From an uncultured delta proteobacterium (lineage in GTDB: Bacteria > Desulfobacterota > Syntrophobacteria > Syntrophobacterales > Syntrophobacteraceae), in NCBI GenBank assembly GCA_963767585.1, contig CAVYEB010000002.1:2080865-2144864 (forward strand): DNA of 64,000 nt, given 5' to 3'. Each line of letters starts with the position of its first letter. The stretch's first letter is position 1. The position numbers were made by a program, and so were the translations under genes. Shown here one piece after another: positions 806 to 57,634 of the stretch. A model generated the notes under the pieces. The model had not been told where the DNA came from, did no database searches, and was given only the letters and a program-made list of their open reading frames with translations.

Positions 806-826
806 CTCCTCAGTCCTCAGTCCTGT
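806..826 (-). repeat. GGACTGA heptamer array just downstream of the arsS-like gene
   Basis: ctcctcagtcctcagtcctg. Confidence 0.9.
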
Positions 827-835
827 CTTTTACGG

Positions 836-1789
836 TCACGCCGCAACAATGCTCCCGCCTCAAGTGAAGCCCGAGCCTGCGGTGCAGGCGTAGCAATGAT
901 CGCCTGTTACGATGGGCCTACCCTCTAAGGACATTTCGCGGATTTCAGAGATGTGTCTTTTACGGCCGCCATGGTGAAGTCCGGCCGCAAGGTTGAAATC
1001 ACAGTCGTAGAGAAATCCCTGCCAATCAACCGAAAGGGTGGTCCTGCACATCAATTGATCGATGGTACAGGGATTGAAGCTGTCTTCGAGTCTTTTTAGA
1101 TAGGCGGAGAGATTTCCGGAGACTTCCAGCCAGTTGCGGAATCGCCCGAGAGGCACATTGGCGAAGGTGAACAGGTTGGTGAAACTTACACCGTGTTTGC
1201 TTTCGAGTTCACGCCTGAACATGCGTTCCGCCTGCGCCTGCGCGGGCGGAAAGAAAGCCCCGGTCGGATTGGCTACAAGATCCAAGTTCAGCCCGGCGCC
1301 TTCCATCGCGTATCCATTGGCGTTCAGCAACTTGAGTGTCGAGATGCTCTTCCCCCACACTCCGGCCCCTCGCTGCGAATCTGTCCGGGGAGCGCTGGTC
1401 GATGGCAGAGAAGCCACTATCGTTACGCGGTGGCGCTTGTAAAGGTCGATCAGATATATAAATTCGGGGCGGGAGAGGGCGACCAGATTGGTGCGCACTA
1501 TCAGCTTGGGCGAAAGGGGTGCAAGTTCGGAAACAAGCCTTGGAAGGCTGGGCAGGAACTCAGGCGCGCCGCCCGTTATATCGAAGGAGGCGAACGAAAA
1601 ACGGCGGGCGCATGCGATGACTGCTTCGAGCGTCCGATCGTCCATCATCTCAGGCCGTGAAGGCCCGGCCTCCAGATGACAGTGGCGGCAGGCCAGATTG
1701 CATCTGAACCCCACGTTTATCTGCAAAACGGCCGCATTAACCCGCCGCAATTCCAGTCCGTGATTGTCAAGCTTTTCCCTGAAAGTCAT
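836..1789 (-). CDS. arsS: radical SAM/Cys-rich domain protein (ArsS-like); predicted selenoprotein with UGA 860-862 read as Sec and true stop at 836-838
   Basis: ORF 860..1789 has the CNLACRHCH radical-SAM box. It ends HCYACTAGSGFT-TGA-GGSIVAA-TGA, and the Cys forms of this family have Cys at that C-terminal position (recalled motif CTAGxGSSCGG). Confidence 0.75.
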
Positions 1790-3610: not shown

Positions 3611-3693
3611 AGGCAAAAGTAAAAAGTAAAACGGCAAAATAGAAAAACTGATGATCTCTCCACTTTTACCTTTTACCTTTTGCCTTTTTACTT
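3611..3693. repeat. GGCAAAAGTAAAA word-hairpin in the dsrO / dsrP spacer
   Basis: aggcaaaagtaaaaagtaaaacggcaaaa - 23 nt - cttttaccttttaccttttgcctttttactt. Confidence 0.9.
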
Positions 3694-4474
3694 AAATGAT
3701 GTAATAGACGCCGGGCTCGGTTCCCAGCTCGGGTTTGCGCCTTATTGAAAACTGTGAAGCAAGGGCTTTTCTAACATCGGAATTCGGGTCTTCCAGGTCG
3801 CCGAATGAAAGCGCCTTGCATTTGCACGCCTCGACACACGCGGGAATCTTTCCAACCGCAAGCCTCTCTTCACAGAAGCTGCACTTCTCGACAACCCCCC
3901 GGTCCCTGGTTGGGAAGGTGGGGTTGAGCTCAGTTTTGATATATGGACGCGGGTCTCTGAAATTGAAGCTCCTGGCGCCGTAAGGGCAGGCGGCCATGCA
4001 ATACCTGCATCCGATGCAGCGGTGGAAATCCATCATCGTGATCCCGTCGGCCCTCTTGAATGTGGCCTTGGTGGGACAAACCCGCGTGCAAGGGGCATGA
4101 GTGCAGTGATTGCAAAGCAGGATGAAGGGTTTCTCTCTTATGGATTCGGGTTCCATGCCGCTTTCCTGCCCGGGGAAGACGTTCTCATACTTCGCCTCCC
4201 AGATCCACTTGATCTCTTCCTTCTCGGTGCCGATATCCGGAACGTTGTGGGTCGAATGGCAAACGAGCAAACAGTCCTGGCAACCCGCAGGTCCTTTTTC
4301 CCAGCACTTCTTCATGTCAATAGCCATCGCCCATCGCTTGGCGGTAAGGCCCTGGACATTCAATACGAACTTTGGCGCTTCGGTTTTGCCGAATGCATCG
4401 GCTGCCTTCAAAGATCCCAGTCCAAGCGCGCAAACGCCGCCGATTTTCAGAAAGGTCCTTCTACTGGTTTCCAT
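3692..4474 (-). CDS. dsrO: DsrO, periplasmic 4Fe-4S ferredoxin-like subunit with Tat signal
   Basis: Start trimmed to METSRRTFLKIGGVCALGLG (twin-arginine). Multiple CxxCxxCxxxCP clusters. The ATG overlaps the dsrJ TAA (TAATG). Confidence 0.85.
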   Translation of the reverse strand: METSRRTFLKIGGVCALGLGSLKAADAFGKTEAPKFVLNVQGLTAKRWAMAIDMKKCWEKGPAGCQDCLLVCHSTHNVPDIGTEKEEIKWIWEAKYENVFPGQESGMEPESIREKPFILLCNHCTHAPCTRVCPTKATFKRADGITMMDFHRCIGCRYCMAACPYGARSFNFRDPRPYIKTELNPTFPTRDRGVVEKCSFCEERLAVGKIPACVEACKCKALSFGDLEDPNSDVRKALASQFSIRRKPELGTEPGVYYII

Positions 4475-4977
4475 TACTTGTTCTCCTTTCCAAAAGTGGC
4501 GAAAAGCGACGAATGGGAAGCCGGAAAAGAACGGTTTTCGACCGTTGCTTTCTGCTCCGCGCTCCCTGGTTTTTCGCTCGGAGCTATATGGCAATTCCAG
4601 CAGTAAGGATCGGCTCCCTTTTCGAGGCCGGCGTAGTTATGGCACTGGTCGCAGAATTGAGACTTGTTGGAGTGACACTTCATGCACTCGTTCTGAAGAC
4701 TCATTTCATAGGTTTTGCCGTCGCCTGCCACATACATTCTCTTGCCGTTCCGGACAACCTGTGTTCTCCAGTCGTTCAGAACCTTCATATGTTCGGTGAT
4801 CATCTGGTCTTTTGGCAGCACGCACTGCTTGTTGATCATCTTGCTGATCACCGGAGTATCGATCTTGGGGTCCGGCGGCGGAGCGGCCTTGCCGTGAGTG
4901 AACCATACCGGGAAAGTTGCCAGCACGATGAAAACGATCAGGCCGACAAGGATATATTTTCCGTCATATATCTTCAT
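4474..4977 (-). CDS. dsrJ: DsrJ, membrane-anchored triheme cytochrome c
   Basis: Three CxxCH motifs (CMKCH, CDQCH, CWNCH). Start MKIYDGKY follows GGAGGA. N-terminal anchor helix. Confidence 0.85.
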   Translation of the reverse strand: MKIYDGKYILVGLIVFIVLATFPVWFTHGKAAPPPDPKIDTPVISKMINKQCVLPKDQMITEHMKVLNDWRTQVVRNGKRMYVAGDGKTYEMSLQNECMKCHSNKSQFCDQCHNYAGLEKGADPYCWNCHIAPSEKPGSAEQKATVENRSFPASHSSLFATFGKENK

Positions 4978-10594: not shown

Positions 10595-10624
10595 CTCAGT
10601 CCTCAGTCCTCAGTCCTCAGTCCT
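10595..10624 (-). repeat. GGACTGA heptamer array (about 4.3 copies)
   Basis: ctcagtc x4, read directly. Confidence 0.95.
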
Positions 10625-13273: not shown

Positions 13274-13292
13274 ATAATCCCGAGGCCGAAAC

Positions 13293-13312
13293 TCCTCAGT
13301 CCTCAGTCCTCA
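13293..13312 (-). repeat. GGACTGA heptamer array supplying the DUF169 stop codon
   Basis: tcctcagtcctcagtcctca. The minus strand reads AAA GAA TGA GGA CTG AGG ACT GAG. Confidence 0.9.
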
Positions 13313-14152
13313 TTCTTTGGGCGGCTTCCACATCAGGTACGGGCAGAGCTTGCACATATTGAATCCGGGGTAGGTCTCACCTGTTCGGGGTAAAGAGACC
13401 CCTCCGTCGCGCACAGTCCTCTGGAGCATCCATCTGATGGTGGGTTCAAGGTGATCGCCCGGCCATATCCAATTTATTTCGCCCTGCTCGGTTTTTCCTG
13501 CCGTGTAGCTGCCGCTGCACATCGTGGTTATATTCGGCTTTCCAGTCACGTGCACGGCCGTCACGCCGTGGCAGGCTGAACTGCCCATGGTCATTACCGT
13601 TTCTAAGGGATGTATATCCATCGCTGCACACCAGTCGGTTCCGAGGTGATATGCCTGGAGCACGTCGCTGATCCCGTGGATTACATCAGGGGCAAAAGGG
13701 GCTTTGTGTATCGGAGCGGTGGCGAAGGCAAGCAACCCCTTGGGAAGCCTCTTCTTGGTCTTGACAAACCGCTCGGCCTGGGCCGGGTCTTTAGTGTACT
13801 TGAGATGGCTTTTCACTTCTCCTTCATCGAACTCCTTCCACCCGAAAACATAACGGGCATTCGTGCAGCCCAGACCTGCCGGTTCGGCAAGCACGACGTC
13901 CCCGCGTTGCCGTGAGGTCGCCAGGGAGTGGCAAAAGGTGAACCCGTGCTTTGGGGCCACATAATCGCCCCGGGCTTTGAAAGCAGCAAGCTCGTCGGAA
14001 TTGAAGAAAAATTTTACCCCGACGGGATAATATTTCATGCGAAGGAGATTCCTGAGGACAAGGGTGATATCGGCCCCATCAAGCTTCTCCTTTTCCAGCA
14101 TGGCTTTTGCGAATTCCACATCGTTCAGGAAAAGGGAGGAATTAATTGCCAT
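13310..14152 (-). CDS. DUF169 family protein
   Basis: 280-aa ORF. The YPVGVKFF...FCH... pattern is recalled for DUF169. Confidence 0.6.
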   Translation of the reverse strand: MAINSSLFLNDVEFAKAMLEKEKLDGADITLVLRNLLRMKYYPVGVKFFFNSDELAAFKARGDYVAPKHGFTFCHSLATSRQRGDVVLAEPAGLGCTNARYVFGWKEFDEGEVKSHLKYTKDPAQAERFVKTKKRLPKGLLAFATAPIHKAPFAPDVIHGISDVLQAYHLGTDWCAAMDIHPLETVMTMGSSACHGVTAVHVTGKPNITTMCSGSYTAGKTEQGEINWIWPGDHLEPTIRWMLQRTVRDGGVSLPRTGETYPGFNMCKLCPYLMWKPPKE

Positions 14153-19146: not shown

Positions 19147-19642
19147 TTTGAACTCATTCCAGTTTTGAGGCTGCCAAGGCAAAAATCTGCCGATTTACGA
19201 AGGAAGTATAATTGTAAGTGTTGATCCCTTACCAGGAATGCGAATCTTGCCCGGGAAGCTTTTCGGTCAGGTGTGGCGTTCATGAAGGATTTCCTTGGAT
19301 GCGGCGTACATTCTTAAATGCTCTCGGACACCACTCTGGATCAGTCTATTACCTATTTCGACATAGAAAGAAAGGAAAAAGAGGAGGTGTAGGCCTCACC
19401 GAGACCGCGTGGAGATTTCGGTTGAGCAGCGTGGATATGGAGGCTGCGAAACCAATTTTTGCGGTCCTCGGAAGAGCACTGTCAGCTATTCAACTATCTC
19501 TCCTCGGCCTTGACTTTTGGACTGCCTAAATCTTTGCTGTTTCCGAATCTCACTTTGATACTCTTATTCAGCGGAAGATCTGGCGGGCAGCTCATCAGCT
19601 ATTTCAAATGCGGCGCTGCGGTAACAGCGTCGTTCACGACGA

Positions 19643-19684
19643 GGACTGAGGACTGAGGACTGAGGACTGAGGACTGAGGACTGA
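19643..19684 (+). repeat. GGACTGA heptamer array, 6 perfect copies
   Basis: ggactga x6, read directly. Confidence 0.97.
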
Positions 19685-19812: not shown

Positions 19813-19899
19813 TCCATCTCAACGATCGCTTATTCTGGAGATCCATCCTCCGGGGTGGGGGATGTCTCCACATCTTTGGAGAAATCAAGGGAGAAGAAA

Positions 19900-20154
19900 T
19901 TGCCTATTTACGAATTTCGGTGTGCGGGTTGCGGCAATGTCGAGGAATTCATCCTGACGGGTAGCCGGGAAATCGAGATGAAGTGCAGCGCGTGCGGAGG
20001 GGAAGGCCTGGAGCGCGTCATCAGCCGAACAAACTATGTGATGGGTTCATCGGGTTCGTCGAAGGGAGCCGATATTTCTGCCACATCGCGCTCATGCGGA
20101 CCCGGGCAATCGTGCACGTCCATAGAACTGCCGGGACATAAAAGAGAGGACTGA
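19900..20154 (+). CDS. FmdB-family putative regulatory zinc-ribbon protein
   Basis: TTG start after AAGGGAGAAG gives (M)PIYEFRCAGCG...KCSACGG, the classic FmdB N-terminus. Confidence 0.7.
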   Translation: MPIYEFRCAGCGNVEEFILTGSREIEMKCSACGGEGLERVISRTNYVMGSSGSSKGADISATSRSCGPGQSCTSIELPGHKRED

Positions 20155-20176
20155 GGACTAAGGACTGAGGACTGAG
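20146..20176 (+). repeat. GGACTGA-type array supplying the zinc-ribbon gene stop (a copy at 20530-20560 lies inside the duplication)
   Basis: gaggactgaggactaaggactgaggactgagg. Confidence 0.95.
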
Positions 20177-20188
20177 GGGGGGACGAGT

Positions 20189-20509
20189 GTGGCCAAGGTC
20201 GACAGATTCGAAGATTTGATTGCCTGGCAGAAAGCGCGGGAGCTGATACGGGCTGTCTATGAGGTTACGCGGCTCGGGGTCTTTGCCAAGGACTATAACC
20301 TAAGCGGGCAGATTCAGCGGGCCGCCGTTTCGATCATGTCGAATATCGCCGAGGGGTTTGAGCGCGGTGGTCGTGGCGAATTTCACCAGTTCCTTTCCAC
20401 TGCCAAGGCGTCATGCGCGGAAGTGCGTTCCCAACTATACGTCGCCAGGGAGCCGATATTTCTGCCACATCGCGCTCATGCGGACCCGGGCAATCGTGCA
20501 CGTCCATAG
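20189..20509 (+). pseudogene. truncated/chimeric four-helix-bundle (23S rRNA IVS-type) gene created by the duplication
   Basis: Identical to the intact copy through ...RSQLYVA, then reads out of frame into the duplicated 3' end of the zinc-ribbon gene. Confidence 0.8.
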
Positions 20510-20572
20510 AACTGCCGGGACATAAAAGAGAGGACTGAGGACTAAGGACTGAGGACTGAGGGGGGGACGAGT

Positions 20573-20905
20573 GTGGCCAAGGTCGACAGATTCGAAGATT
20601 TGATTGCCTGGCAGAAAGCGCGGGAGCTGATACGGGCCGTCTATGAGGTTGCGCGGCTCGGGGCCTTTGCCAAGGACTATAACCTAAGCGGGCAGATTCA
20701 GCGGGCCGCCGTTTCGATCATGTCGAATATCGCCGAGGGGTTTGAGCGCGGTGGTCGTGGCGAATTTCACCAGTTCCTTTCCACTGCCAAGGCGTCATGC
20801 GCGGAAGTGCGTTCCCAACTATACGTCGCCCTGGATATAGGTTATCTGGACAAGGCGTCATTCGACGCACTCATGCAGCAAGCTGAGGAAGTGCTCGAAT
20901 TGTAG
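20573..20905 (+). CDS. four-helix-bundle protein (23S rRNA intervening-sequence protein family)
   Basis: [26 protein letters not shown]...[10 protein letters not shown]...[25 protein letters not shown] is typical of this family. Confidence 0.85.
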
Positions 20906-20980
20906 GCGGCTTGCGTGCCTCTATACACAGACAGAAAGAATACGGAGGCAAATGAACAACATTGTTCCAGTTTACTTCCA

Positions 20981-21010
20981 CTCAGTCCCCAGTCCCCAGT
21001 CCTCAGTCCT
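20981..21010 (-). repeat. GGACTGA/GGGACTG array supplying the DUF1992 stop
   Basis: ctcagtccccagtccccagtcctcagtcct. Confidence 0.9.
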
Positions 21011-21413
21011 CGCGCTTCGCGCAGTCCTTTTCCTTGCTTCCCATTTTTTCTACGATCCTGTCGTAATATACCTGGTTTGTTTCGAGATCCAGCGAGCTGC
21101 GGCGGGACATGTTGAGTTTCATGATGAGGTAATTCAGCTTCTTTATCTGCCTGTATTTTTCCTTCGTATCCTTGACTCCGTCCAGCAATTCTTCGATAGA
21201 AAAGATTTCTTTTCTAAGCTCGAGCTCAGGAGGGAGACAGTCGGCATTTTTTAAAATCTTGTACGCCAGCCGGATATCCTGGGGAATATGCCTGTCGTCC
21301 TCCAACTGGAGGGGTTTCCCCTTACCGGCAAGATTATCGAATTCGCCGTTGTCCATTGCTTCACGGATTTTTTTCTCCGCGATTTTCTCGAATGCTTCGA
21401 ATATATTACCCAT
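21003..21413 (-). CDS. DUF1992 (DnaJC28-like) domain protein
   Basis: AMDNGEFDNLAGKGKPLQLEDD...AYKILKNADCLPPELELRKEI. Confidence 0.8.
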   Translation of the reverse strand: MGNIFEAFEKIAEKKIREAMDNGEFDNLAGKGKPLQLEDDRHIPQDIRLAYKILKNADCLPPELELRKEIFSIEELLDGVKDTKEKYRQIKKLNYLIMKLNMSRRSSLDLETNQVYYDRIVEKMGSKEKDCAKRED

Positions 21414-23850: not shown

Positions 23851-23872
23851 CAAAACTAAAAACTAAAAACTC
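23851..23872 (+). repeat. AAAACTA tandem words directly upstream of the ligD ATG
   Basis: caaaactaaaaactaaaaactc ATG. Confidence 0.9.
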
Positions 23873-26455
23873 ATGCCACTTGAATCATATCATGAAAAAC
23901 GCCGCTTCCAACGCACCCCTGAGCCGCAGGGGAAGGTTGAAGCGACCCCGGGAGGCAATCTCTATATAATCCAGAAACACGCAGCAAGCCACCTTCATTA
24001 CGACCTTCGACTCGAGCTTGACGGGGTCCTCAAGAGCTGGGCGGTGCCTAAAGGCCCAAGCCTTAAGCCGACCGAGAAAAGGCTTGCCGTCCATGTAGAA
24101 GACCACCCGATAGAATACGGTTCTTTTGAGGGAATGATCCCGGAGGGAGAATACGGGGCGGGAACGGTCATGCTCTGGGATCGCGGAACGTGGGAGCCTG
24201 GGGGTGACCCTCATGCGGGATACGCCAAAGGTGACTTCAAGTTCAAACTGCACGGCGAGAAGCTGAAAGGGAGCTGGGTGCTTGCAAGAATGAAAGGAAA
24301 AGCGGGGGGAGACGAGGGCAAGAACTGGCTGCTTATAAAAAAACGCGACGATGCGGCTATCTCCGGATCTGAACCGGAACCCGTCGAAGTTTTGGACCGG
24401 AGTGTGGCGAGCGGGCGCACAATGCAGGAAATTTCGTCTCAGAGTGATAAATTCTGGATCGTCCCATCCGACCTGCCCGGCGTTCGTCAGGCAGATCAGC
24501 CGGAATTTATGCAATTACAGCTCGCAACGCCGGGCGATAAACCTCCAAAGGGTGAAAACTGGCTGCATGAAATTAAATACGACGGCTACCGGATATTGTG
24601 CAGACTCCGCGAAGGACAGGCGCGGCTTTTTTCACGGAATGAAAAGGAATGGACGAACCGGTTTCCTCAGATAGCTGAAGCTGCCGCCAGGATTCCAATC
24701 GAAAGCGCATTTTTGGACGGAGAGGTGGCGGTCATTGACGAGCATGGAAAGACCGACTTTCAGGCGCTTCAGAATATCCTCCAGGGAACACATACGGGCA
24801 AGCTCGTCTACTTCGTTTTCGATATACCGTTTTGCGCCGGCTACGATCTCACGCAAACACCGCTTATTAAGCGCAAGGAGCTTCTGCTAAAGAAACTATT
24901 GTCGCTCAAACATTCGAACGGCGAATCCCAGGTCCTCTACGCAGATCACATTGTCGGGCAGGGAGAGTCCGTCTTTCAATCAGCGTGCAGGCTCGGGCTC
25001 GAGGGCATTGTTTCCAAGCGTGCCGACAGCAGCTATGAAAAGGGGAGGGGCAGGAACTGGATCAAGGTGAAATGCTCCATGAGGCAGGAGTTTGTAGTTG
25101 GGGGATTCACCGATCCGGGTGGTTCCCGGATAGGTTTTGGCGCGCTGTTGCTCGGATACTATAGCCCGCAGGGCCGGCTGGTTTATGCAGGTAGAACTGG
25201 AACTGGATTCGACGACCAGACCCTTGAAACTCTCTCAAAGCGACTGGTGCGGATGGAAACCGACACGCCGACGTTCAGCAATCCTCCTGCAGGCTATGAG
25301 GCCAAGGGGGTCCATTGGATCAGGCCGGAACTGGTGGCTGAGGTGGTATTCAGCGCCTGGACCGATGATGGAGTTCTTCGCCACCCCGCTTTCAAAGGAT
25401 TAAGGGAGGATAAGGACCCAAAAGATGTTGTCCGGGAGGACAACGGAGGACGGAAGAAAGAGGAATTAGGAGTGGCGCCTACTTCTTGGCGCAAGGCTGG
25501 AGTGAGATTGGCCGGCGCCGAACCGGAGGTTAGGGAAGAGGGCGGAGAACAGAGGACACAGGACGGAAGGCGGAAGACAGGAGGCAAAATGACGGCTCTT
25601 ACGAACCCGAATCGGGTTTTCTACCCCGAAATTGGGGTGACCAAACGCGCCCTTGCCGAATATTACACCGAAATCGCCGACTGGATTATGCCGCATCTTG
25701 CGGGGCGTCCGCTTACCCTCGTGCGCTGTCCGGAAGGACGGGAGAAGGAGTGCTTCTTTCAGAAACATCTCCGGGATGGGGCCCCTGAGATCCTCAGGTC
25801 TATCCCGGTAATGGAAAAAAACGAGAAAGTATACTACAGCGTCGCCGACAATATCGAAGGCGTCATAGCGCTGGTTCAGATGGGAGCTTTGGAAATACAT
25901 GTATGGGGGAGCCGGGAAGATAAGCTGGAGCAGCCGGACATGATGATATTCGATCTCGATCCCGCGCCTGAGGTCGACTGGGGTGAAATGGTCAAGGCCG
26001 CCAGGCTCATGCGCGAGCGGCTCTCAAACCTGGGACTGGAGAGCTTTGTGAAGACGACCGGAGGAAAAGGGCTGCACATAGTAGTCCCTCTTACTCCCAA
26101 TGCGGACTGGGAAACGGTCAAGGCGTTTTCCAAAGCGGTGGCGGACAGCATAGTCCGGGAGTACCCCGGAAAATATATCGCCACTATGTCCAAAGAAAAG
26201 CGCAAGGGTAAGATTTTTATCGATTATCTTAGAAACGGGCGTGGGGCGACAAGCGTAGCGGCTTATTCCACAAGAAGCCGGCATGGCGCTCCCATATCAA
26301 CACCCGTCGCATGGGATGAGCTTACCACCGACCTCAAACCGGACAGCTACAACATCCAAAATATCCGTGGCAGATTGTCCCACCTCCAGGGCGACCCCTG
26401 GGCAGGATATTTTTCGCTCCGGCAGGAAATAGACATAGATGCAATTAGAAATTAG
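23873..26455 (+). CDS. ligD: DNA ligase D (3'-phosphoesterase - ATP-dependent ligase - polymerase/primase domains)
   Basis: N-terminus YHEKRRFQRTPEP...HYDLRLE (PE domain); ligase KYDGYR motif; C-terminal LTNPNRVFYPE...DLDP... polymerase domain. Confidence 0.9.
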   Translation: MPLESYHEKRRFQRTPEPQGKVEATPGGNLYIIQKHAASHLHYDLRLELDGVLKSWAVPKGPSLKPTEKRLAVHVEDHPIEYGSFEGMIPEGEYGAGTVMLWDRGTWEPGGDPHAGYAKGDFKFKLHGEKLKGSWVLARMKGKAGGDEGKNWLLIKKRDDAAISGSEPEPVEVLDRSVASGRTMQEISSQSDKFWIVPSDLPGVRQADQPEFMQLQLATPGDKPPKGENWLHEIKYDGYRILCRLREGQARLFSRNEKEWTNRFPQIAEAAARIPIESAFLDGEVAVIDEHGKTDFQALQNILQGTHTGKLVYFVFDIPFCAGYDLTQTPLIKRKELLLKKLLSLKHSNGESQVLYADHIVGQGESVFQSACRLGLEGIVSKRADSSYEKGRGRNWIKVKCSMRQEFVVGGFTDPGGSRIGFGALLLGYYSPQGRLVYAGRTGTGFDDQTLETLSKRLVRMETDTPTFSNPPAGYEAKGVHWIRPELVAEVVFSAWTDDGVLRHPAFKGLREDKDPKDVVREDNGGRKKEELGVAPTSWRKAGVRLAGAEPEVREEGGEQRTQDGRRKTGGKMTALTNPNRVFYPEIGVTKRALAEYYTEIADWIMPHLAGRPLTLVRCPEGREKECFFQKHLRDGAPEILRSIPVMEKNEKVYYSVADNIEGVIALVQMGALEIHVWGSREDKLEQPDMMIFDLDPAPEVDWGEMVKAARLMRERLSNLGLESFVKTTGGKGLHIVVPLTPNADWETVKAFSKAVADSIVREYPGKYIATMSKEKRKGKIFIDYLRNGRGATSVAAYSTRSRHGAPISTPVAWDELTTDLKPDSYNIQNIRGRLSHLQGDPWAGYFSLRQEIDIDAIRN

Positions 26456-29017: not shown

Positions 29018-30175
29018 ATGCAACTTATAAGACCGGATATCAATATCAACTTCGTCGGAGTGCGCTACAAAGCTTTCATGCTTTCAGGCGCGATCATACT
29101 CCTTGGATTGCTTACCCTTTTCATGCGAGGCGGGCTCAGGATGGGCGTCGATTTTGCCGGGGGGACGCTGATCCAGGCTAAATTCAGCAGACCGACCACT
29201 CCGGACGAAATCCGCAATTCACTCCAGGGGATAGTTAAAAACGCTTTCATACAGCAGGTTGGCGCCAAGGGCGACAATGAATATCTCGTCCGTACCGACG
29301 CCATTCACGAAGAACTGGGGAGCCTGTCGAATAAGATCGAGGACCAACTCGACAAAGTCTATGGCCCCGGACAACAGGTACTGCGCGTTGAGATGGTGGG
29401 TCCCAAAGTCGGCCATGACCTTCGGCAAAAGGCGCTGCACGCCATCTTTTACGCTTTTCTATTCATCGCCGTCTATATTTCCTGGCGGTTTGAATTCAAA
29501 CTTTCAGCCGGCCTCATAATGCTGTTCGTCATGGGGCTGGGAATTTATCTGCTCGACGCCTTGGGCCTAAACGCGGCGTACCTTATCGGGGCAGCCCTTG
29601 TAGTAACTTTTGTGCTTTGCTGGTATCTCAAGCTGCCGTACGCCCTCGGGGCGCTGCTATCACTGGTTCATGACATTTTGATAACGGTCGGCATTTTCGC
29701 GTTTTTCAACAAGGAATTCAGCCTGGAGGTCTTTGCCGCCCTGTTGACCCTCTCCGGTTATTCGCTGAACGATACGATCATCGTCTACGACCGGATCCGT
29801 GAAAACCGCAACAAGGACAAAAAAATCAAATTCAGCGACATGATAAACGGGGCGATTAATCAGACCCTGAGCCGAACTGTGCTGACATCAATGACGGTGT
29901 TTTTCGTGATATTGTGCCTTTTCCTTCTCGGCGGCAGCGTAATCCACGATTTTAGTTTTGCCATGTTGATAGGAGTGGTGACCGGAAGTTACTCATCGGT
30001 GTTTGTGGCGAGTCCAATCCTAATTGCCTACGAAGACCTGACGAAAAAGAAGCCAGTGGCAGCCTCAAAACGCACGGTGGTTGAGGCTGGAGGGTCTAAA
30101 CCCGCCAAGAGTCCGAAGAAGGCGAAGAAACAATCCCCCGGGCAGGCAGATGTGAGCAGGAGCGCGCGCGGGTAA
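29018..30175 (+). CDS. secF: protein translocase subunit SecF (with a basic, low-complexity C-terminal tail)
   Basis: GVDFAGGT motif, 6 TM helices, and a position directly after secD. Confidence 0.9.
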   Translation: MQLIRPDININFVGVRYKAFMLSGAIILLGLLTLFMRGGLRMGVDFAGGTLIQAKFSRPTTPDEIRNSLQGIVKNAFIQQVGAKGDNEYLVRTDAIHEELGSLSNKIEDQLDKVYGPGQQVLRVEMVGPKVGHDLRQKALHAIFYAFLFIAVYISWRFEFKLSAGLIMLFVMGLGIYLLDALGLNAAYLIGAALVVTFVLCWYLKLPYALGALLSLVHDILITVGIFAFFNKEFSLEVFAALLTLSGYSLNDTIIVYDRIRENRNKDKKIKFSDMINGAINQTLSRTVLTSMTVFFVILCLFLLGGSVIHDFSFAMLIGVVTGSYSSVFVASPILIAYEDLTKKKPVAASKRTVVEAGGSKPAKSPKKAKKQSPGQADVSRSARG

Positions 30176-30179
30176 AATT

Positions 30180-30241
30180 AAGGCAAAAGTAAAAAGGCAA
30201 AAGTAAAAATGTGGACAAGTGATTTTTGCCTTTTGCCTTTC
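30180..30241. terminator. GGCAAAAGTAAAA word-hairpin between convergent secF and usp
   Basis: aaggcaaaagtaaaaaggcaaaagtaaaaa - 13 nt - tttttgccttttgcctttc. Confidence 0.7.
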
Positions 30242-30707
30242 ATTGCGCTACCCATACGGCCACATTCTTGAAATCGACAAGGATTTTCCGGGTAACCGAG
30301 GTTTTCAGAAAACTCCATACCCCCTGCGGTTGAGAATGCCCGAGCCCTATTATTCCGATTCCATTATTGGCGCACCAGGAAAGGATTTCATGGGCGGTAT
30401 CGCCTCTATCGGGAATCAGCGTTATGCGAATGCGGCTAACATCGAAGCCATAATCTATCAGTATTTCGGATGCTTTTAAGAGGTATGATACCTCTTCTCG
30501 TCTCACAGGATTATCGGCATAATGTTGTAACTTCTTCGGCGCTTCTGAAGGCAGGCATGAAATCGGATGCGACAGTTTTTTTGCCGCGTGCAGAAGAGTA
30601 ACGCCGGAACCGGTTCTGGACAGCATGAAGCCTGCGTGGTCCGCAACCCGCAATGATGCGTCGTCGTTTACTATGCATATTGCGGGCGCTCTTCGGGTCG
30701 ATTTCAC
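30240..30707 (-). CDS. universal stress protein domain (second half of a probable tandem-USP gene)
   Basis: ICIVNDDASLRVADHAG...GIGIIGLGHS...TRKILVDFKNVAVWVAQ. Confidence 0.6.
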   Translation of the reverse strand: MKSTRRAPAICIVNDDASLRVADHAGFMLSRTGSGVTLLHAAKKLSHPISCLPSEAPKKLQHYADNPVRREEVSYLLKASEILIDYGFDVSRIRITLIPDRGDTAHEILSWCANNGIGIIGLGHSQPQGVWSFLKTSVTRKILVDFKNVAVWVAQ

Positions 30708-32300: not shown

Positions 32301-33266
32301 TTGATGGACTTACGCTTTGTAATCTTGCCCGAGATCGACCTGGATAACGGGACCTTCGAGATAAGAGAATTCGCAGGCACGACCCGTCTGCGGGAATCGC
32401 TTGCACGCTTGGGAATTCTTGACCCGCCCTGGCTCCAAAAAAAGGGCGGCGAATACATCGTCATTGATGGTTTCAAAAGACTGTGCTGGGCAAAAGAAAA
32501 TGGGGTGCGGGGGGCGGAGTGCCGGATTTTCCCTGAGCATTACGAAACCAGCGAACTTTGGAAGCGAAGGCTGGAAAAAAAAATCTTCGAACGCGAAATC
32601 AATCCTGCAGAAAAGACGCAAATAGTGTCTACGCTGCTCGAATTGTTTCAACCTTTTGAAATTCCTAGATTTTTTCTCACCGAGTTGGATATTTCAAACC
32701 GCCCCGAGGTCCTGCAGAATTGGGCCCTGCTTTCAACCTGGGGACCGGAAAGCCTCCAAATTATCGCCTCGGGGGCTGTGGCTGAGCGTGCGGCTCTTGA
32801 GATAGCGGGCTGGGACAGGGGCAGCAGAGATTCGATTTTGCGGGTGCTCCTGGTTCTGCGGTGCAGCGCGAGCATCCAGGTGGAGATAGTTGAGCGCATA
32901 AACGAAATAGCTATTCGCGAAGGAAAGGTGGGCGTCGACATTATCGACACTCCACGTGTGCGCGAAATCCTCGAGACAACGGGACTGAACCACCGGCAAA
33001 AAACACAGGCGCTGAGAGAGTTGTTGTCTGAACTGCGGTACCCCAGGCTCAGTTCGAGACAGAGACGGTTCAAGAGGCAGAGCGAAGCTGTTGGGCTCCC
33101 GACAGGAACGAGAATCATTCCCCCGGCGGCATTCGAAGGGAACAATTGGAGGATGGAACTGAGTTTTACTGACGTTCAAGAGCTTCTAAAGATGCTCGAC
33201 CTAACCATGTCTATCGTACAATCAGGTCGCCTGGATGCCATATTGGGAGTTAAGGGTGAAGGGTGA
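32301..33266 (+). CDS. ParB N-terminal (ParB/Srx nuclease-like) domain protein
   Basis: EYIVIDGFKRLCWAKENG resembles the ParB-box DGxxR region. The rest is helical with no obvious motif. Confidence 0.55.
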   Translation: MMDLRFVILPEIDLDNGTFEIREFAGTTRLRESLARLGILDPPWLQKKGGEYIVIDGFKRLCWAKENGVRGAECRIFPEHYETSELWKRRLEKKIFEREINPAEKTQIVSTLLELFQPFEIPRFFLTELDISNRPEVLQNWALLSTWGPESLQIIASGAVAERAALEIAGWDRGSRDSILRVLLVLRCSASIQVEIVERINEIAIREGKVGVDIIDTPRVREILETTGLNHRQKTQALRELLSELRYPRLSSRQRRFKRQSEAVGLPTGTRIIPPAAFEGNNWRMELSFTDVQELLKMLDLTMSIVQSGRLDAILGVKGEG

Positions 33267-33298
33267 AGACCTGACCGCAACCCCATCGCCTGGCTGAA

Positions 33299-42477: not shown

Positions 42478-42766
42478 CTTAAAGGAAACTGCATCCCGTT
42501 TACCGGTCAAACCCTTTTGCCCCTTTACTGAAATGAAATCAGTTGCTTTATGGCCCAAAACCGGGAAGAAGTAAAGAGAAAGCTGCCGCGGATTCAGGCG
42601 GACCACGTACAGTCAATGGACCATTTAAGGTTTAAATTAAAGACGTGAGGAATTTCATTTTAGTTGACGCGGCAGCGCCGAAATCTGAGAACCAAGGCTG
42701 AGGACTGAGTGCTGAAGGTAGAAGATCAGGATTCAGCGCCGGGGTGACGAGGAGGAATGAAACCAG

Positions 42767-43342
42767 GTGCAGCTACAGTTTAAACCTACCAGGGAGCAGG
42801 TCCGGGCAGCCAGGGGCAAAACGATCCCAGACGTAATCGCGCCGGGGCTGAAGGTGCTCTTTTGCGGAATAAATCCAGGCTTGTTCACGGCAGCGGTAGG
42901 GCATCACTTTGCAAGACCCGGCAATCGTTTCTGGCCGGCGCTTCACCATGCAGGCTTCACCCCGAGGCAACTTTCCCCCTTTGAGGAAGAAGAACTTCTC
43001 AACTACGGATATGGGGTTGCGAATATCGTGAGATATGCTACCGCCCGGGCCGACGAACTCACGACCGAAGAACTGATCGAGGGTGGAAATGTCCTCACAG
43101 AGAAACTGAGAACTTTCAAGCCCTGTTTTTGCGCGATCCTGGGACTGGGGGCCTTCCGGCAGGCATTCAGGCATCCCAGGGCCATGCCGGGGCTTCATCC
43201 GGAAAAACTCGGCGGTATATGTTCCGCCTGGGTATTGCCTAACCCAAGCGGTCTCAACGCAAACTACCAGATGGACGACCTCGTGCGCATGCTGAAAGAA
43301 CTAAAGGCGGCAGTTGATGAAGAATGCAGGCATGAGAGGTGA
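42767..43342 (+). CDS. mug: G/U mismatch-specific uracil-DNA glycosylase
   Basis: KVLFCGINPGLFTAAVGHHFARPGNRFW and LPNPSGLN motifs. Confidence 0.85.
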   Translation: MQLQFKPTREQVRAARGKTIPDVIAPGLKVLFCGINPGLFTAAVGHHFARPGNRFWPALHHAGFTPRQLSPFEEEELLNYGYGVANIVRYATARADELTTEELIEGGNVLTEKLRTFKPCFCAILGLGAFRQAFRHPRAMPGLHPEKLGGICSAWVLPNPSGLNANYQMDDLVRMLKELKAAVDEECRHER

Positions 43343-48954: not shown

Positions 48955-50154
48955 GTGCGAATCCCCAAAAGAAATTTCTTGTCGCTGGGCCTGATTTTTC
49001 TCATTTGTTCGGTCTTTCTTTTTTCTTCATATACTTTTTCCCGGGCGGAGTCCGAGAACTATGAAAATGCGCAACCGGCCGCGGAGCTTTTAAGGCCTCA
49101 GGCGTCTTACGACCAATACGCCGCGCTTATTGCGGGCATTCGCACACCAAAGTGTGTCCTGGCGCCTTTTGAAAACATGCCCGTCTGGACTGAATATGCC
49201 AAGGCCTCCGACAACAACTGGGAGAAGTACGGGAAGATGCAGTTGGCGCCAATGAGGAAGTGGGCAGCCACGGAACTGGACAAATCAATATCTTCGGGGT
49301 CCACCGTATTCTATCCATTCAGCGGACCGGATTTTATCAGTGCTTTCACCCTTTTCCCCGGTGCACAGACCTTTATCCTGATGGCCCTGGAACCAATCGG
49401 CGATATGCCTGATTTTCAGGCAATGAGCCAAAATGACTTCGATTCATTTTTTACCGATATCCGGAAGTCGCTCCACGATATACTGGACATTAACTATTTC
49501 ATAAGCTCACACATGGACACAGCCATGGAAAGCAAGGAACTCAACGGCGTGATTCCTTTTCTTCTTTTTTTCCTGGCGAGGGAAAAGACCCGCATACTCG
49601 ACGTCGAATATTGGTTTATGGAGCCGAACGGAACCATTCGGCAAGTCCCGGCGTTGAACGGTGGCAAGCCCGGTCCGGCAGACGTCATTCCGGGAGTGCG
49701 GATTGTGTTTGAAAGCGCAGACTCGCCGGGCAACAAGCCGCAGACACTCTACTACTTTCGGCTGAACCTTTATAACCCCAGCTTCGGGCGCAACAGGCAT
49801 TTCATTACTTTTTTGCAGAATTTTGGGCCGCTCATTACCTTCATGAAATCGGCGGCCTATGTAATGTTCGATCGACAGGCGTCGCTGGCGAGGCAGTTCG
49901 TTCTCAATCAAAGCCGCTATATTCTCCAGGAAGATTCCGGAATCCCCTTGAGGTACTTCGACCCTTCAATCTGGGCTCTGCAATTTTACGGCACTTACAG
50001 CGGGCCGATATCGGCTTTCAAAGAAGACTACCAGGCACGACTTGCGAAAATATACAGAAACGGCGGGAACATCAAACCTCTGCCCTTCGGAATAGGCTAT
50101 CACTTCCAGATTGAAACGGCCAACCTTATGCTGGCAACCAGGAAGGGCAATTAG
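48955..50154 (+). CDS. hypothetical secreted/anchored protein
   Basis: GGAGG-N8-GTG, an N-terminal hydrophobic helix, and no motif I recognise. Confidence 0.5.
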   Translation: MRIPKRNFLSLGLIFLICSVFLFSSYTFSRAESENYENAQPAAELLRPQASYDQYAALIAGIRTPKCVLAPFENMPVWTEYAKASDNNWEKYGKMQLAPMRKWAATELDKSISSGSTVFYPFSGPDFISAFTLFPGAQTFILMALEPIGDMPDFQAMSQNDFDSFFTDIRKSLHDILDINYFISSHMDTAMESKELNGVIPFLLFFLAREKTRILDVEYWFMEPNGTIRQVPALNGGKPGPADVIPGVRIVFESADSPGNKPQTLYYFRLNLYNPSFGRNRHFITFLQNFGPLITFMKSAAYVMFDRQASLARQFVLNQSRYILQEDSGIPLRYFDPSIWALQFYGTYSGPISAFKEDYQARLAKIYRNGGNIKPLPFGIGYHFQIETANLMLATRKGN

Positions 50155-50182
50155 GGATGAGGAATTAGGAATTAGGAATGGG
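50146..50182 (+). repeat. AATTAGGAATG-family array containing the stop of the 399-aa ORF
   Basis: ggcaattagggatgaggaattaggaattaggaatggg. Confidence 0.95.
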
Positions 50183-51493: not shown

Positions 51494-53703
<2,210 letters not shown>

Positions 53704-56140: not shown

Positions 56141-56247
56141 GGCGATTTTCAGCTATATAATCAAATCGGCAGAAAACCAAAACCAGGCCATAAAATATGC
56201 AAATTTCGGGCCTTCGGTGCTTAATTTCACGTCGAAAGGGAAACACT

Positions 56248-57048
56248 ATGGACTACTTGAAACCCGAGGCTTTTTTCGATCTGGCCTCATTCGCTCACCG
56301 CGACCTGTTTGCCGGCCGTAAATATGTCTGGGATAGCCTGAGCGAAATTAGCGGCTATCTGGAACAGCACCTCAAACCTAATGTGGCCCATCTGAAGTGT
56401 TTCAAACGTCCGCTGCCGAAGACGGTTGTAATGTGGAGGGGACAGACCCTGGATGCCGGCTTCGAGGTCCTTGGCGGAGATGTCACCAAGGGCAGGTTTC
56501 GCGTGAGAATCGGAGGTGAGGAAACCGATGAGGCGGCAGTACTGTGGGAGGGAAGTGTTCTGTGGGACGAAGCAATTTTTATCGGCCCGGGGGCAGTCGT
56601 TGAACCGGGGGCGCTGATAAAAGGTCCGTGCATAATAGGGCCGCAAGCCGAAGTGCGCCAGGGGGCGTACATGCGGGGCAAGTGTATAGTGGGCGCCAGA
56701 TGTATAGTCGGCCACACCACCGAGATGAAATCAAGCATCATGCTGGACGGCGCAAAGGCCGGGCATTTTGCCTACATCGGCGACAGCATTATTGGACATG
56801 AAGCAAACCTGGGGGCCGGCACGAAGCTCGCCAACCTGAAAATGGGGGAGCAGACCATCCGGGTGATAGCTCACGGCACGCAGATTATCACGAACCTGCG
56901 AAAGTTCGGGGCCATTCTCGGCGACCATGCGGAGACAGGCTGCAACTCTGTCACCAACCCAGGGACCGTTATAGGTAAAAGCTGCCGGGTTTTCCCTCTC
57001 ACATCCGTTCGGGCCGGCTACTATGAACCCAACTCAGTCATTAGATAA
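56248..57048 (+). CDS. left-handed beta-helix (hexapeptide repeat) protein, GlmU C-terminal-like
   Basis: Repeated [LIV]G-x4 hexapeptides: IGPGAVVEPGALIKGPCIIGPQAEVRQGAYMRGKCIVGARCIVG. Confidence 0.6.
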   Translation: MDYLKPEAFFDLASFAHRDLFAGRKYVWDSLSEISGYLEQHLKPNVAHLKCFKRPLPKTVVMWRGQTLDAGFEVLGGDVTKGRFRVRIGGEETDEAAVLWEGSVLWDEAIFIGPGAVVEPGALIKGPCIIGPQAEVRQGAYMRGKCIVGARCIVGHTTEMKSSIMLDGAKAGHFAYIGDSIIGHEANLGAGTKLANLKMGEQTIRVIAHGTQIITNLRKFGAILGDHAETGCNSVTNPGTVIGKSCRVFPLTSVRAGYYEPNSVIR

Positions 57049-57634
57049 TAGGACTGGGACAGGACTCTCAGTCCTCAGTCCTCAGTCCTCAGTCCTCAGT
57101 AAGGGGGAGGACGAGGTCATAAAGTATTTCCGAAAACTCCACGGCGCGGCGGAAGGAGGGGGAGAGGCACTTCCCTACCGATTGACCGCCTCAGGCGCCT
57201 GGGCTGCCTCGCGGCCTGGTTACCTGTTCAATTTTTTTAAAAAAATAAACCTATCATCGTTCGGCCTCTTTGTAGACCTTGGCAGCGGAGACGGAGTTGT
57301 CTGCTGCGTCGCAAGCCTGTTCACCACGGCGGTCGGAATAGAATCCGATCCTTTTCTGATATCGCGTGCTGCACAAGCCGCGCGGGAACTGAAACTCGAG
57401 GGCCGCGCGGGGTTCATTCGCGCCGATTTCCTTACTCAACGCATTCAGGCGGCAGACTGTCTGTTCATCTATCCGGACAAGCCCGTCTATCCACTGGAGA
57501 AGGTCCTGAATGGCTGGGGTGGGACCCTTTTAATCTCAGGCCCTCATTTTCCCCCAAAGCAGTTTTCGCTGAAAGAAAAGCTCCAGTGCGACACGGAGAC
57601 GCTGTCGGTGTATGTCGGAAGCCGTGAAGCATGA
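57023..57634 (+). CDS. SAM-dependent methyltransferase-like protein (start unresolved)
   Basis: VDLGSGDGVV motif I. The only in-frame ATG is at 57023, which makes the heptamer array translated ([12 protein letters not shown]). There is no ATG/GTG/TTG between the array and residue ~50 except TTG at 57182. Confidence 0.45.
   Translation: MNPTQSLDNRTGTGLSVLSPQSSVLSKGEDEVIKYFRKLHGAAEGGGEALPYRLTASGAWAASRPGYLFNFFKKINLSSFGLFVDLGSGDGVVCCVASLFTTAVGIESDPFLISRAAQAARELKLEGRAGFIRADFLTQRIQAADCLFIYPDKPVYPLEKVLNGWGGTLLISGPHFPPKQFSLKEKLQCDTETLSVYVGSREA
57051..57100. terminator. GGACTGG/GGACT words followed by an inverted CTCAGTC x5 array (hairpin) after the beta-helix gene
   Basis: ggactgggacaggact | ctcagtcctcagtcctcagtcctcagtcctcagt. 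Confidence 0.6.

Follow-up and report, generated by a model that had tools for sequence, protein, structure and literature searches.

In a 64,000-nucleotide stretch of the genome of an uncultured Syntrophobacteraceae-like deltaproteobacterium (the window; C2:2080865-2144864 of a 6.38-Mb, 52% G+C genome in two contigs), we found that tandem arrays of the heptamer GGACTGA belong to a genome-wide population of period-7 repeats that lies preferentially at gene 3' ends with its purine-rich strand in sense. We give roughly a 55% chance to the reading that (GGACTGA)n is the commonest of 58 such families and is kin both to the known heptamer microsatellites (the cyanobacterial short tandemly repeated repetitive (STRR) sequences, GGGAATC, GGGGAYT and TAACTGA) and to a family of cassettes in which inverted heptamer arrays surround a PF05635 gene. 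The census, made genome-wide and across phyla, places the purine-rich strand at stop codons, and a direct test weighs against the attractive idea that stops in three frames are what the repeat is for. The arrays have unit, polarity and junction motif in common with the arms of the cassette, which appears to travel between phyla. The evidence supports, but does not prove, that the solo arrays originated from this four-helix-bundle cassette.

Bacterial heptamer tandem repeats have been on record since 1990 and occur in excess in many genomes, with no accepted function or origin; the STRR sequences reportedly go back to Mazel in that year. A two-unit pattern search of the window, allowing at most one mismatch, returned 21 GGACTGA matches against 0.01 expected. 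Together with Tandem Repeats Finder (TRF), used for period-7 arrays, it recovered every (GGACTGA)n array that an earlier note on this DNA had listed. The six perfect copies claimed at 19643-19684 were placed by TRF at 19641..19684 (+ strand) with 6.3 perfect copies, which makes this solo array the longest GGACTGA array of the genome. Genome-wide, there were 79 GGACTGA arrays with at least two in-phase units, and the single word GGACTGA occurred at chance frequency (803 copies against about 809 expected). Arrays of at least 2.5 perfect copies numbered 215 for period 7, compared with 69, 85, 13 and 29 for periods 5, 6, 8 and 9. These 215 arrays formed 58 unit families, led by GGACTGA with 31 arrays, against 0-6 for its one-mismatch neighbours, and followed by CTAAAAA, AATTAGG, AAGGGTG, GTAAAAA, AAAAGGC and AACAGTG. 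A simple hexamer-based caller gave 5310 genes and 82.5% coding sequence; 166 of the 215 arrays fell outside these genes, the non-coding share of the genome being 17.5%. In their excess, period, dispersal and multiplicity of families, the arrays belong with the bacterial heptanucleotide microsatellites (the long simple sequence repeat (LSSR)/STRR class). STRR in the strict sense are those of heterocystous cyanobacteria, and the arrays here are STRR-like, not STRR proper.

To place the arrays relative to genes, each was oriented by its purine-rich strand and counted if it contained a stop codon or lay no more than 30 nt from one. The purine strand was in sense at the stop for 80 of the 215 arrays and antisense for 20, against 15.4 ± 3.7 arrays expected from random intergenic placement. 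Sixty of the 80 sense arrays overlapped the stop or began within 10 nt of it, and 27 contained the stop of the upstream gene. The earlier note's observation, for which random orientation and no 3'-end enrichment would have been damaging, thus survived a genome-wide census with strong enrichment in the stop-bearing orientation. Families with a stop on one strand only had 53 arrays in the stop orientation at 3' ends against 9. When GGACTGA arrays were scored by open reading frames (ORFs) of at least 100 aa and no gene model, a sense ORF ended at the array in 33 cases and an antisense ORF in 9. We then turned to many other phyla and to 126 (GGACTGA)≥5 arrays found in about 100 of their genomes, where sense ORF ends outnumbered antisense ends by 73 to 13, and by 41 to 13 when stops supplied by the array itself were ignored.

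One possible explanation for this pattern is that the array is a selected, frame-independent stop, kept at gene ends where UGA in three frames catches read-through or frameshifted ribosomes within 21 nt. The unit itself, read in each frame, bore out the claim that it has stops in three frames forward and none in reverse. The 3'-end enrichment in stop orientation, genome-wide and across phyla, favours such selection, as do the 27 arrays that provide the actual stop codon and the 11 arrays with a stop on the pyrimidine strand only, in which the purine-strand bias was gone (4:4). However, heptamer families without a stop on either strand were biased too, with the purine strand in sense at a ratio of 13:0. 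Purine-rich heptamers with T often hold TAA, TAG or TGA by composition alone, and we therefore used letter permutations of each unit as a composition control. Stop-bearing arrays exceeded this expectation (150 against 109; families 29 against 24, P 0.04), which again speaks for selection, but the excess near 3' ends (63 against 47) was the same as in other places (87 against 62), at about 1.3-1.4-fold.

The variation within the unit also argues against a selected stop. Among one-mismatch units in or beside arrays, positions 5-7 (T, G and A) varied most and GGAC least; in the other phyla, the variant counts along the unit were 2, 6, 10, 15, 58, 17 and 20. The stop was kept in 30% of these variants and in 36% of those in this genome, compared with 62% under equally likely changes, and in 3 of 15 when only internal variants were taken and each locus was counted once. 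Three perfect units are needed to shut all frames, a length reached by 13 of 77 GGACTGA arrays. The whole-copy counts decayed monotonically (64, 7, 4, 1 and 1 arrays with 2, 3, 4, 5 and 6 copies), leaving 83% below three. The longest array (19643-19684) terminates no credible gene, as the ORFs reaching into it lack Pfam matches and appear non-coding. Moreover, the stop-less heptamers GGGAATC of Xanthomonas and GGGGAYT of Nostoc show the same position and strand preference (PMC4692102), and three-frame stops had already been stated for TAACTGA repeats (MacGregor 2015, PMC4679880). Of the idea put forward in the earlier note, the 3'-end position and the stop orientation stood; stops as the purpose did not, given the 13:0 bias of the stop-less families and the variable T, G and A. 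We consider a selected stop quite unlikely and find no support for the inference that the repeat exists for the sake of its stops. Instead, the stops look like a tolerated by-product. A purine arm with UGA in all frames ends any ORF that abuts it, so that an array which lands on the final codons of a gene, or grows across them, would be tolerated. The stops would be a permissive by-product of this kind, possibly with a mild benefit to the cassette, and not a frame-independent terminator selected for the host gene.

The evidence for kinship with a cassette comes from the genes beside the arrays. Pfam identified the ORFs just past the arrays at 20146 and 20530 as PF05635 genes, which encode the four-helix-bundle '23S rRNA intervening-sequence' protein. 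The full cassette occupies window positions 20530-21011, where inverted heptamer arrays, the purine-rich arm first, surround a PF05635 gene. The 5' arm (20530..20561, + strand) lies at the expected ribosome-binding-site position, 11 nt upstream of the gene (20573..20905, +), which sits in the loop; the 3' arm (20981..21011, −), made of TCAGTCC/CAGTCCC units on the + strand, pairs with it. In an RNA fold of window 20520-21020, the two arrays paired into a stem that encloses the gene (−203 kcal/mol, z −4.6). The same arrangement recurs elsewhere: all 8 PF05635 genes of the genome had a purine-rich heptamer-type array directly before the start codon and its reverse complement 40-110 nt past the stop, with an arm unit that varied copy by copy. 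At C2:991271-992250, two identical PF05635 genes lie 665 bp apart, with arms of period 8 (AGGTGAAT/GGGTGAAT) and not 7. The arm units of the resident cassettes are those of free-standing array families, ranked 1, 5, 6, 12, 14 and 18 in the census. We found no published description of a link between PF05635 and heptamers in the literature searched.

The association extends beyond this genome. The orthologous cassette was present in four other species of the genus, which keep GGACTGA-type arms with different copy numbers and variant units, as slippage would produce; being common to five species, these arms are among the older arrays. Most of the PF05635 copies inspected from two further genera of the order had long inverted arrays of other units (TCCGAGG, GAACATC, TTTCAAG/TCGCAAG, AAGGTTA and AAGGATT). 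Species of the genus with GGACTGA arrays had more PF05635 genes than those without, the species not being independent samples, and a PF05635 gene lay directly beside the array at 5 of 120 GGACTGA loci from other phyla. A tree built from 28 PF05635 domains united the GGACTGA-armed copies of Acidobacteriota, Gemmatimonadota, Armatimonadota and this genus in one clade (support 98/93). Two label changes were needed to explain the armed copies, a score that none of 500 shuffles matched, and their monophyly was not rejected (approximately unbiased (AU) test, 0.44). As armed copies co-cluster across phyla, gene and arms seem to travel together, and the cassette would move between phyla as a gene plus its arms.

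Inverted pairing was also found at arrays that enclose no gene. About a quarter of the arrays had an inverted copy downstream, with the purine arm leading, a pairing that makes a hairpin in RNA or DNA. Inverted partners within 600 nt were purine-first in 52 cases and pyrimidine-first in 13 in this genome, and inverted partners in other phyla were so in 35 and 4 cases. In other phyla, loop lengths formed two clusters, one at 40-46 nt and a gene-sized one at about 390-430 nt. Several short loops had GTCAAGC...CTCTTCCAC in common directly before the pyrimidine arm. The inner junction CTTCCAC|TCAGTCC was found in this genome's cassette, beside some of its solo arrays and in the gene-less hairpins of other phyla. 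A purine-first hairpin reads the same from either strand, so both genes of a convergent pair meet a stop-bearing arm; the same symmetry yields the published pattern in which the G-rich strand is the coding strand after genes and the non-coding strand before them.

Gene-less GGACTGA hairpins with loops of 40-46 nt occurred at eight loci (L024, L048, L051, L072, L114, L119, L125 and L130), and those of Gemmatimonadota, Acidobacteriota and Gammaproteobacteria have the loop motif GGAGCGTG…GTCAAGC…CTCTTCCAC in common. They have the look of a miniature element that is conserved.

Solo arrays and gene-less hairpins may be derivatives of the PF05635 cassette family, or may share its way of propagating. 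The co-clustering of armed copies, the matching units, the loop sizes and the shared junction motif speak for such an origin. Several points weigh against it. Solo arrays prevail, making up 88 of the 126 from other phyla and about 75% of those in this genome, and their flanks are heterogeneous, with no single dispersed element evident; one dispersed element with conserved flanks is ruled out on this ground. For the families ranked 2, 4, 7 and 8, the genome contains no full cassette. Array-bearing regions past stops were no more structured than control 3' regions. Since stop-bearing arrays exceed the composition-matched expectation (150 against 109, the family-level excess being marginal), some selection for stops may exist, and the excess of variants at T, G and A could reflect mutation bias instead of relaxed constraint. 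In addition, the gene caller is crude, although the ORF-only checks agree with it, and related genomes are non-independent samples.

Solo arrays with heterogeneous flanks are equally what plain slippage microsatellites, arising with no cassette, would leave behind. In that case the polymerase would favour period 7, reportedly a proposal of Mrazek from 2007, and selection on the mRNA would set strand and position, for instance by keeping transcripts free of C-rich Rho-loading tracts or of CCUC tracts that are anti-Shine-Dalgarno-like. The monotonic copy-number distribution, the variable copy numbers of orthologous arms and the many unit families (58) are all consistent with slippage, as is the heptamer excess in many bacteria (cited in PMC4692102 and PMC4679880). 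However, slippage sits poorly with the very skewed family sizes (31 GGACTGA arrays against 0-6 in one-mismatch neighbours) and with an identical 35-mer that we found in more than 120 stretches from many phyla. Inverted partners that are overwhelmingly purine-first, with preferred loop sizes and a common junction motif, also argue against it, as do gene and arms that co-cluster across phyla and sites in relatives that are empty and hold no heptamer seed. We regard slippage on its own as unlikely.

Going further than kinship, we put forward tentatively, as a possibility with clearly less than even odds, that a horizontally mobile cassette, encoding PF05635 in its full form, is the source of the heptamer repeats of bacteria, which would be its arms, its gene-less hairpins and its solo remnants, with the PF05635 protein as a trans-acting partner that recognises or propagates the arms of 7 nt. 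Having a stop in every frame and a GGA/GAGG ribosome-binding-like motif, the purine arm would cap the host ORF and start translation of the cassette gene. If the link to the cassette is true, the heptamer repeats and the PF05635 family, two old unknowns, become one testable system, and a mobile cassette would provide a function for both.

To ask how recently the arrays arose, we compared four junctions across 10-13 species. Among sequences fetched, the nearest relatives were metagenome-assembled genomes (MAGs) of Syntrophobacteraceae from peat, collinear with this genome at 79-80% identity over 7.7 kb. The arrays at the four junctions were absent from the relatives examined, except for the hairpin at 30180-30240, which is common to this genome and one other (G010), and at three of the four the array abuts, supplies or replaces the gene end. 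Between the convergent stops at 30175-30511, the spacer of six species is 7 nt long. A hairpin of about 66 nt of the same heptamer family is found there in this genome and G010, and a heptamer-tipped insert of another kind in two further species. At 33252 and 26455, the array provides a new C terminus and stop, and the array at 33252..33268 was found in none of the relatives examined. A local origin from a stop-codon seed is ruled out by the empty orthologous sites, which hold no heptamer seed. Synteny at the 13293 locus was not conserved in the orthologous comparison.

An array can also persist inside a gene. At C1:653180-653300 (L030:2100-2200), a TCAGTCC array in the open orientation runs in frame within a conserved beta-lactamase-like gene, where it would encode a SPQSSVL-type linker. 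A MAG at 80% identity has six perfect units there, compared with decayed units and an additional 12 nt in this genome; the array length is a multiple of 3 in both.

Arrays of several families have in turn received insertions. A repetitive extragenic palindrome (REP)-like element of about 57 nt (…GCCTCCGGCCCGGCGCTGGGCAA-N20-GTACGCGCC) was inserted in phase and with no target duplication; it lies in or beside arrays at C1:479074-479209, C2:2790935-2791050 and others, and in another species (G009, L140), upstream of a PF05635 gene, it splits a GGACTGA array exactly in phase. Insertion in phase and without target duplication suggests site-specific insertion into single-stranded DNA, as in IS200/IS605 or REP-associated tyrosine transposases (RAYT), and Y1 transposase genes are present in the genome. 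The insertion resembles the small dispersed repeats that Elhai and colleagues (2008) reportedly described in Nostoc heptamer arrays.

The conserved GGAC part of the unit could instead mark a binding platform for an RNA- or single-stranded-DNA-binding protein that takes up about 7 nt per monomer or recognises GGA motifs (cold-shock protein, S1 or CsrA) and regulates the translation or stability of neighbouring transcripts. Many families start with GGA or GGG, arrays often lie at the expected ribosome-binding-site position before the next gene, and MacGregor 2015 proposed S1, Csp (cold-shock protein) or CsrA as partners of TAACTGA, with CspB binding as one protein per heptamer (PMC4679880). This genome does encode CsrA, and its second-longest GGACTGA array (5 copies) lies 207 nt upstream of csrA. 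However, this array was present in 0 of 26 relatives and no promoter for a sponge RNA was found beside it, so we take its position as coincidence; a CsrA sponge, that is, a CsrA-titrating GGA-repeat RNA, is excluded on the same grounds. The A-rich families lack GGA altogether, and to our knowledge CsrA is lacking in cyanobacteria that have the same arrays. We judge a binding platform very unlikely. At the csrA locus itself (L153, C2:2789800-2792300; 1136-1170 and 1377-1652), the leader and promoter region is well conserved across the genus.

A general role in termination was ruled out. Array-bearing 3' regions folded at −25.5 kcal/mol against −27.3 kcal/mol for controls and were thus no more stable, and only 20 of 80 arrays were mostly paired. 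Between 10 and 24 kb of the window, we found no terminator-like site at GGACTGA arrays except one short stem at 13280-13299, which touches the array at 13293-13312. The RNA of the six-copy array at 19643-19684 was unstructured (z 0.02). An Rfam search of the window returned tRNA only and no known RNA family at the arrays. Two A-rich hairpins are terminator-like in appearance: one of AAAAGGT/AAAAGTA against TTTTAC at 3615..3681 (−; z −4.2), downstream of the gene at 3692..4594 (−), and one of the AAGGCAA/AAGTAAA family at 30180..30240 (+), between convergent stop codons.

The window makes up about 1% of the genome yet holds 9 of the 79 GGACTGA arrays and about ten of other families, and is a local hot spot; GC skew was too weak to locate the origin and terminus in this genome. 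Pfam confirmed the gene labels given in the earlier note: radical-SAM/DUF3641 (arsS-like), DUF169, Zn_ribbon_8 (FmdB-like) and DJC28_CD (DUF1992). That note had placed arrays directly at five gene 3' ends. For the DUF169 gene, the FmdB-like gene, the duplicate of the latter and the DUF1992 gene, the stop is indeed inside the array. The arsS-like gene (860..1789, −) differs, as the (GGACTGA)2.6 solo array at 807..824 (−), with its purine strand in sense, lies 36 nt downstream of the stop. The (GGACTGA)2.9 array at 13293..13312 (−) holds the stop codon of the DUF169 gene (13310..14152, −), and no record of this protein was found elsewhere. The GGACTGA/GGACTAA array at 20146..20177 (+) includes the stop of the FmdB-like Zn-ribbon gene (19855..20154), and the cassette's 3' arm, read on the − strand, includes that of the DJC28_CD gene (21003..21413, −). 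Only one Logan contig encodes the DJC28 protein, and this short-read contig stops at the array. For annotation, the arrays rewrite the last codons of genes (…KRED-stop), and short-read assemblies are broken by them.

The array at 20146..20177 is part of a near-perfect tandem duplication (20063-20830, 2 x 384 bp, 99% identity) that takes in the FmdB-like gene's end, the array itself and codons 1-85 of the four-helix-bundle gene. The duplication accounts for the truncated PF05635 copy at 20189..20509, which begins 11 nt downstream of the array. Two further GGACTGA loci are away from 3' ends or degenerate: a (GGACTGA)4.3 solo array at 10595..10624 (−), in a divergent intergenic region away from any 3' end, and a GGCTGA-GGACTGA-GTGCTGA run at 42690..42715 (+), about 50 nt upstream of the gene at 42767..43342.

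The array at 57067-57100 had been described as being in the open orientation. Its orientation is as described, but it is no exception to the rule: it is the pyrimidine (second) arm of a gene-less hairpin at 57050..57100 (+; −32 kcal/mol, z −3.4). The short purine arm (57050-57066, AGGACTGGGACAGGACT) begins 2 nt past the stop of the gene at 56197..57048 and is directly followed by (CTCAGTC)4.9. The methyltransferase-like ORF that crosses it (57023-57634) has no ATG, GTG or TTG from the hairpin to the conserved domain; it has GGGGGAGGA, then ATA 7 nt later. This predicted ORF may be translated from ATA, or from the ATG at 57023 through the hairpin.

The window also has arrays of other families. 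The (AAGGGTG)2.4 array at 33252..33268 (+) provides the TGA stop of the gene at 32301..33266, (AGGAATT)2.9 at 50160..50179 (+) lies 5 nt past the stop of the gene at 48955..50154, and (TAGGAAT)2.9 at 52604..52623 (−) lies between tandem minus-strand genes with its purine strand in sense. At 23852-23871, (AAAACTA)3 directly precedes the ATG of a LigD-like gene (23873..26455); ten relatives have a GGAG-containing leader there, so the array seems to have replaced the ribosome-binding site.

Among known systems, close counterparts are the TAACTGA direct repeats that MacGregor 2015 described in marine Beggiatoaceae, Cyanobacteria and Bacteroidetes (PMC4679880). Like the arrays here, they have a 7-nt unit ending in CTGA, occur as tandem arrays of 2-6 or more copies and are intergenic with one dominant orientation. 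Forward TAACTGA repeats stop three frames and hence lie at ORF ends, with 13 sets overlapping the stop of the upstream gene (PMC4679880), and we likewise found three-frame stops forward, none in reverse and ORFs that end in the array. Their patchy distribution across phyla suggests horizontal transfer (PMC4679880). The unit is GGACTGA here, in a Syntrophobacteraceae-like deltaproteobacterium, and TAACTGA was unmatched among the top 45 of the 58 array families listed. We scored arrays by distance to the upstream stop and MacGregor by distance to the downstream start, and that paper has no inverted pairs or PF05635 genes, with one indirect repeat only (PMC4679880).

The G-rich heptamer simple sequence repeats (SSRs) of Rehm 2015, GGGAATC in Xanthomonas and GGGGA(C/T)T in Nostoc (the STRR1 family), are alike in their intergenic excess, their depletion between divergent genes, the occurrence of inverted pairs and a length that varies among related species at conserved positions (PMC4692102). 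Their G-rich strand is the coding strand 0-50 nt from or overlapping the stop, as we found for the purine-rich strand here (80 against 20), and the non-coding strand upstream of genes (PMC4692102). Read on the other strand, STRR1 is GGACTGG, one change from GGACTGA. Unlike GGACTGA, the Rehm heptamers have no stop codon and can form G-quadruplexes, and four units are preferred there, whereas copy numbers here are monotonic (PMC4692102).

REP elements and bacterial interspersed mosaic elements (BIMEs) resemble the arrays in being short, hairpin-forming and nestable and in lying at gene 3' ends, but the arms here are tandem 7-mers of variable register and unit and not one fixed palindrome. The cassette, finally, resembles the ORF-bearing intervening sequences of 23S rRNA (S23p/PF05635; Coxiella and Leptospira), which are regarded as selfish and mobile (PMC4990558). 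In both, a PF05635 ORF lies within inverted ends that form a long stem, and the window cassette folds in this way. By contrast with the rRNA elements, the cassette sits between protein-coding genes, and its arms are tandem heptamers whose unit varies from copy to copy.

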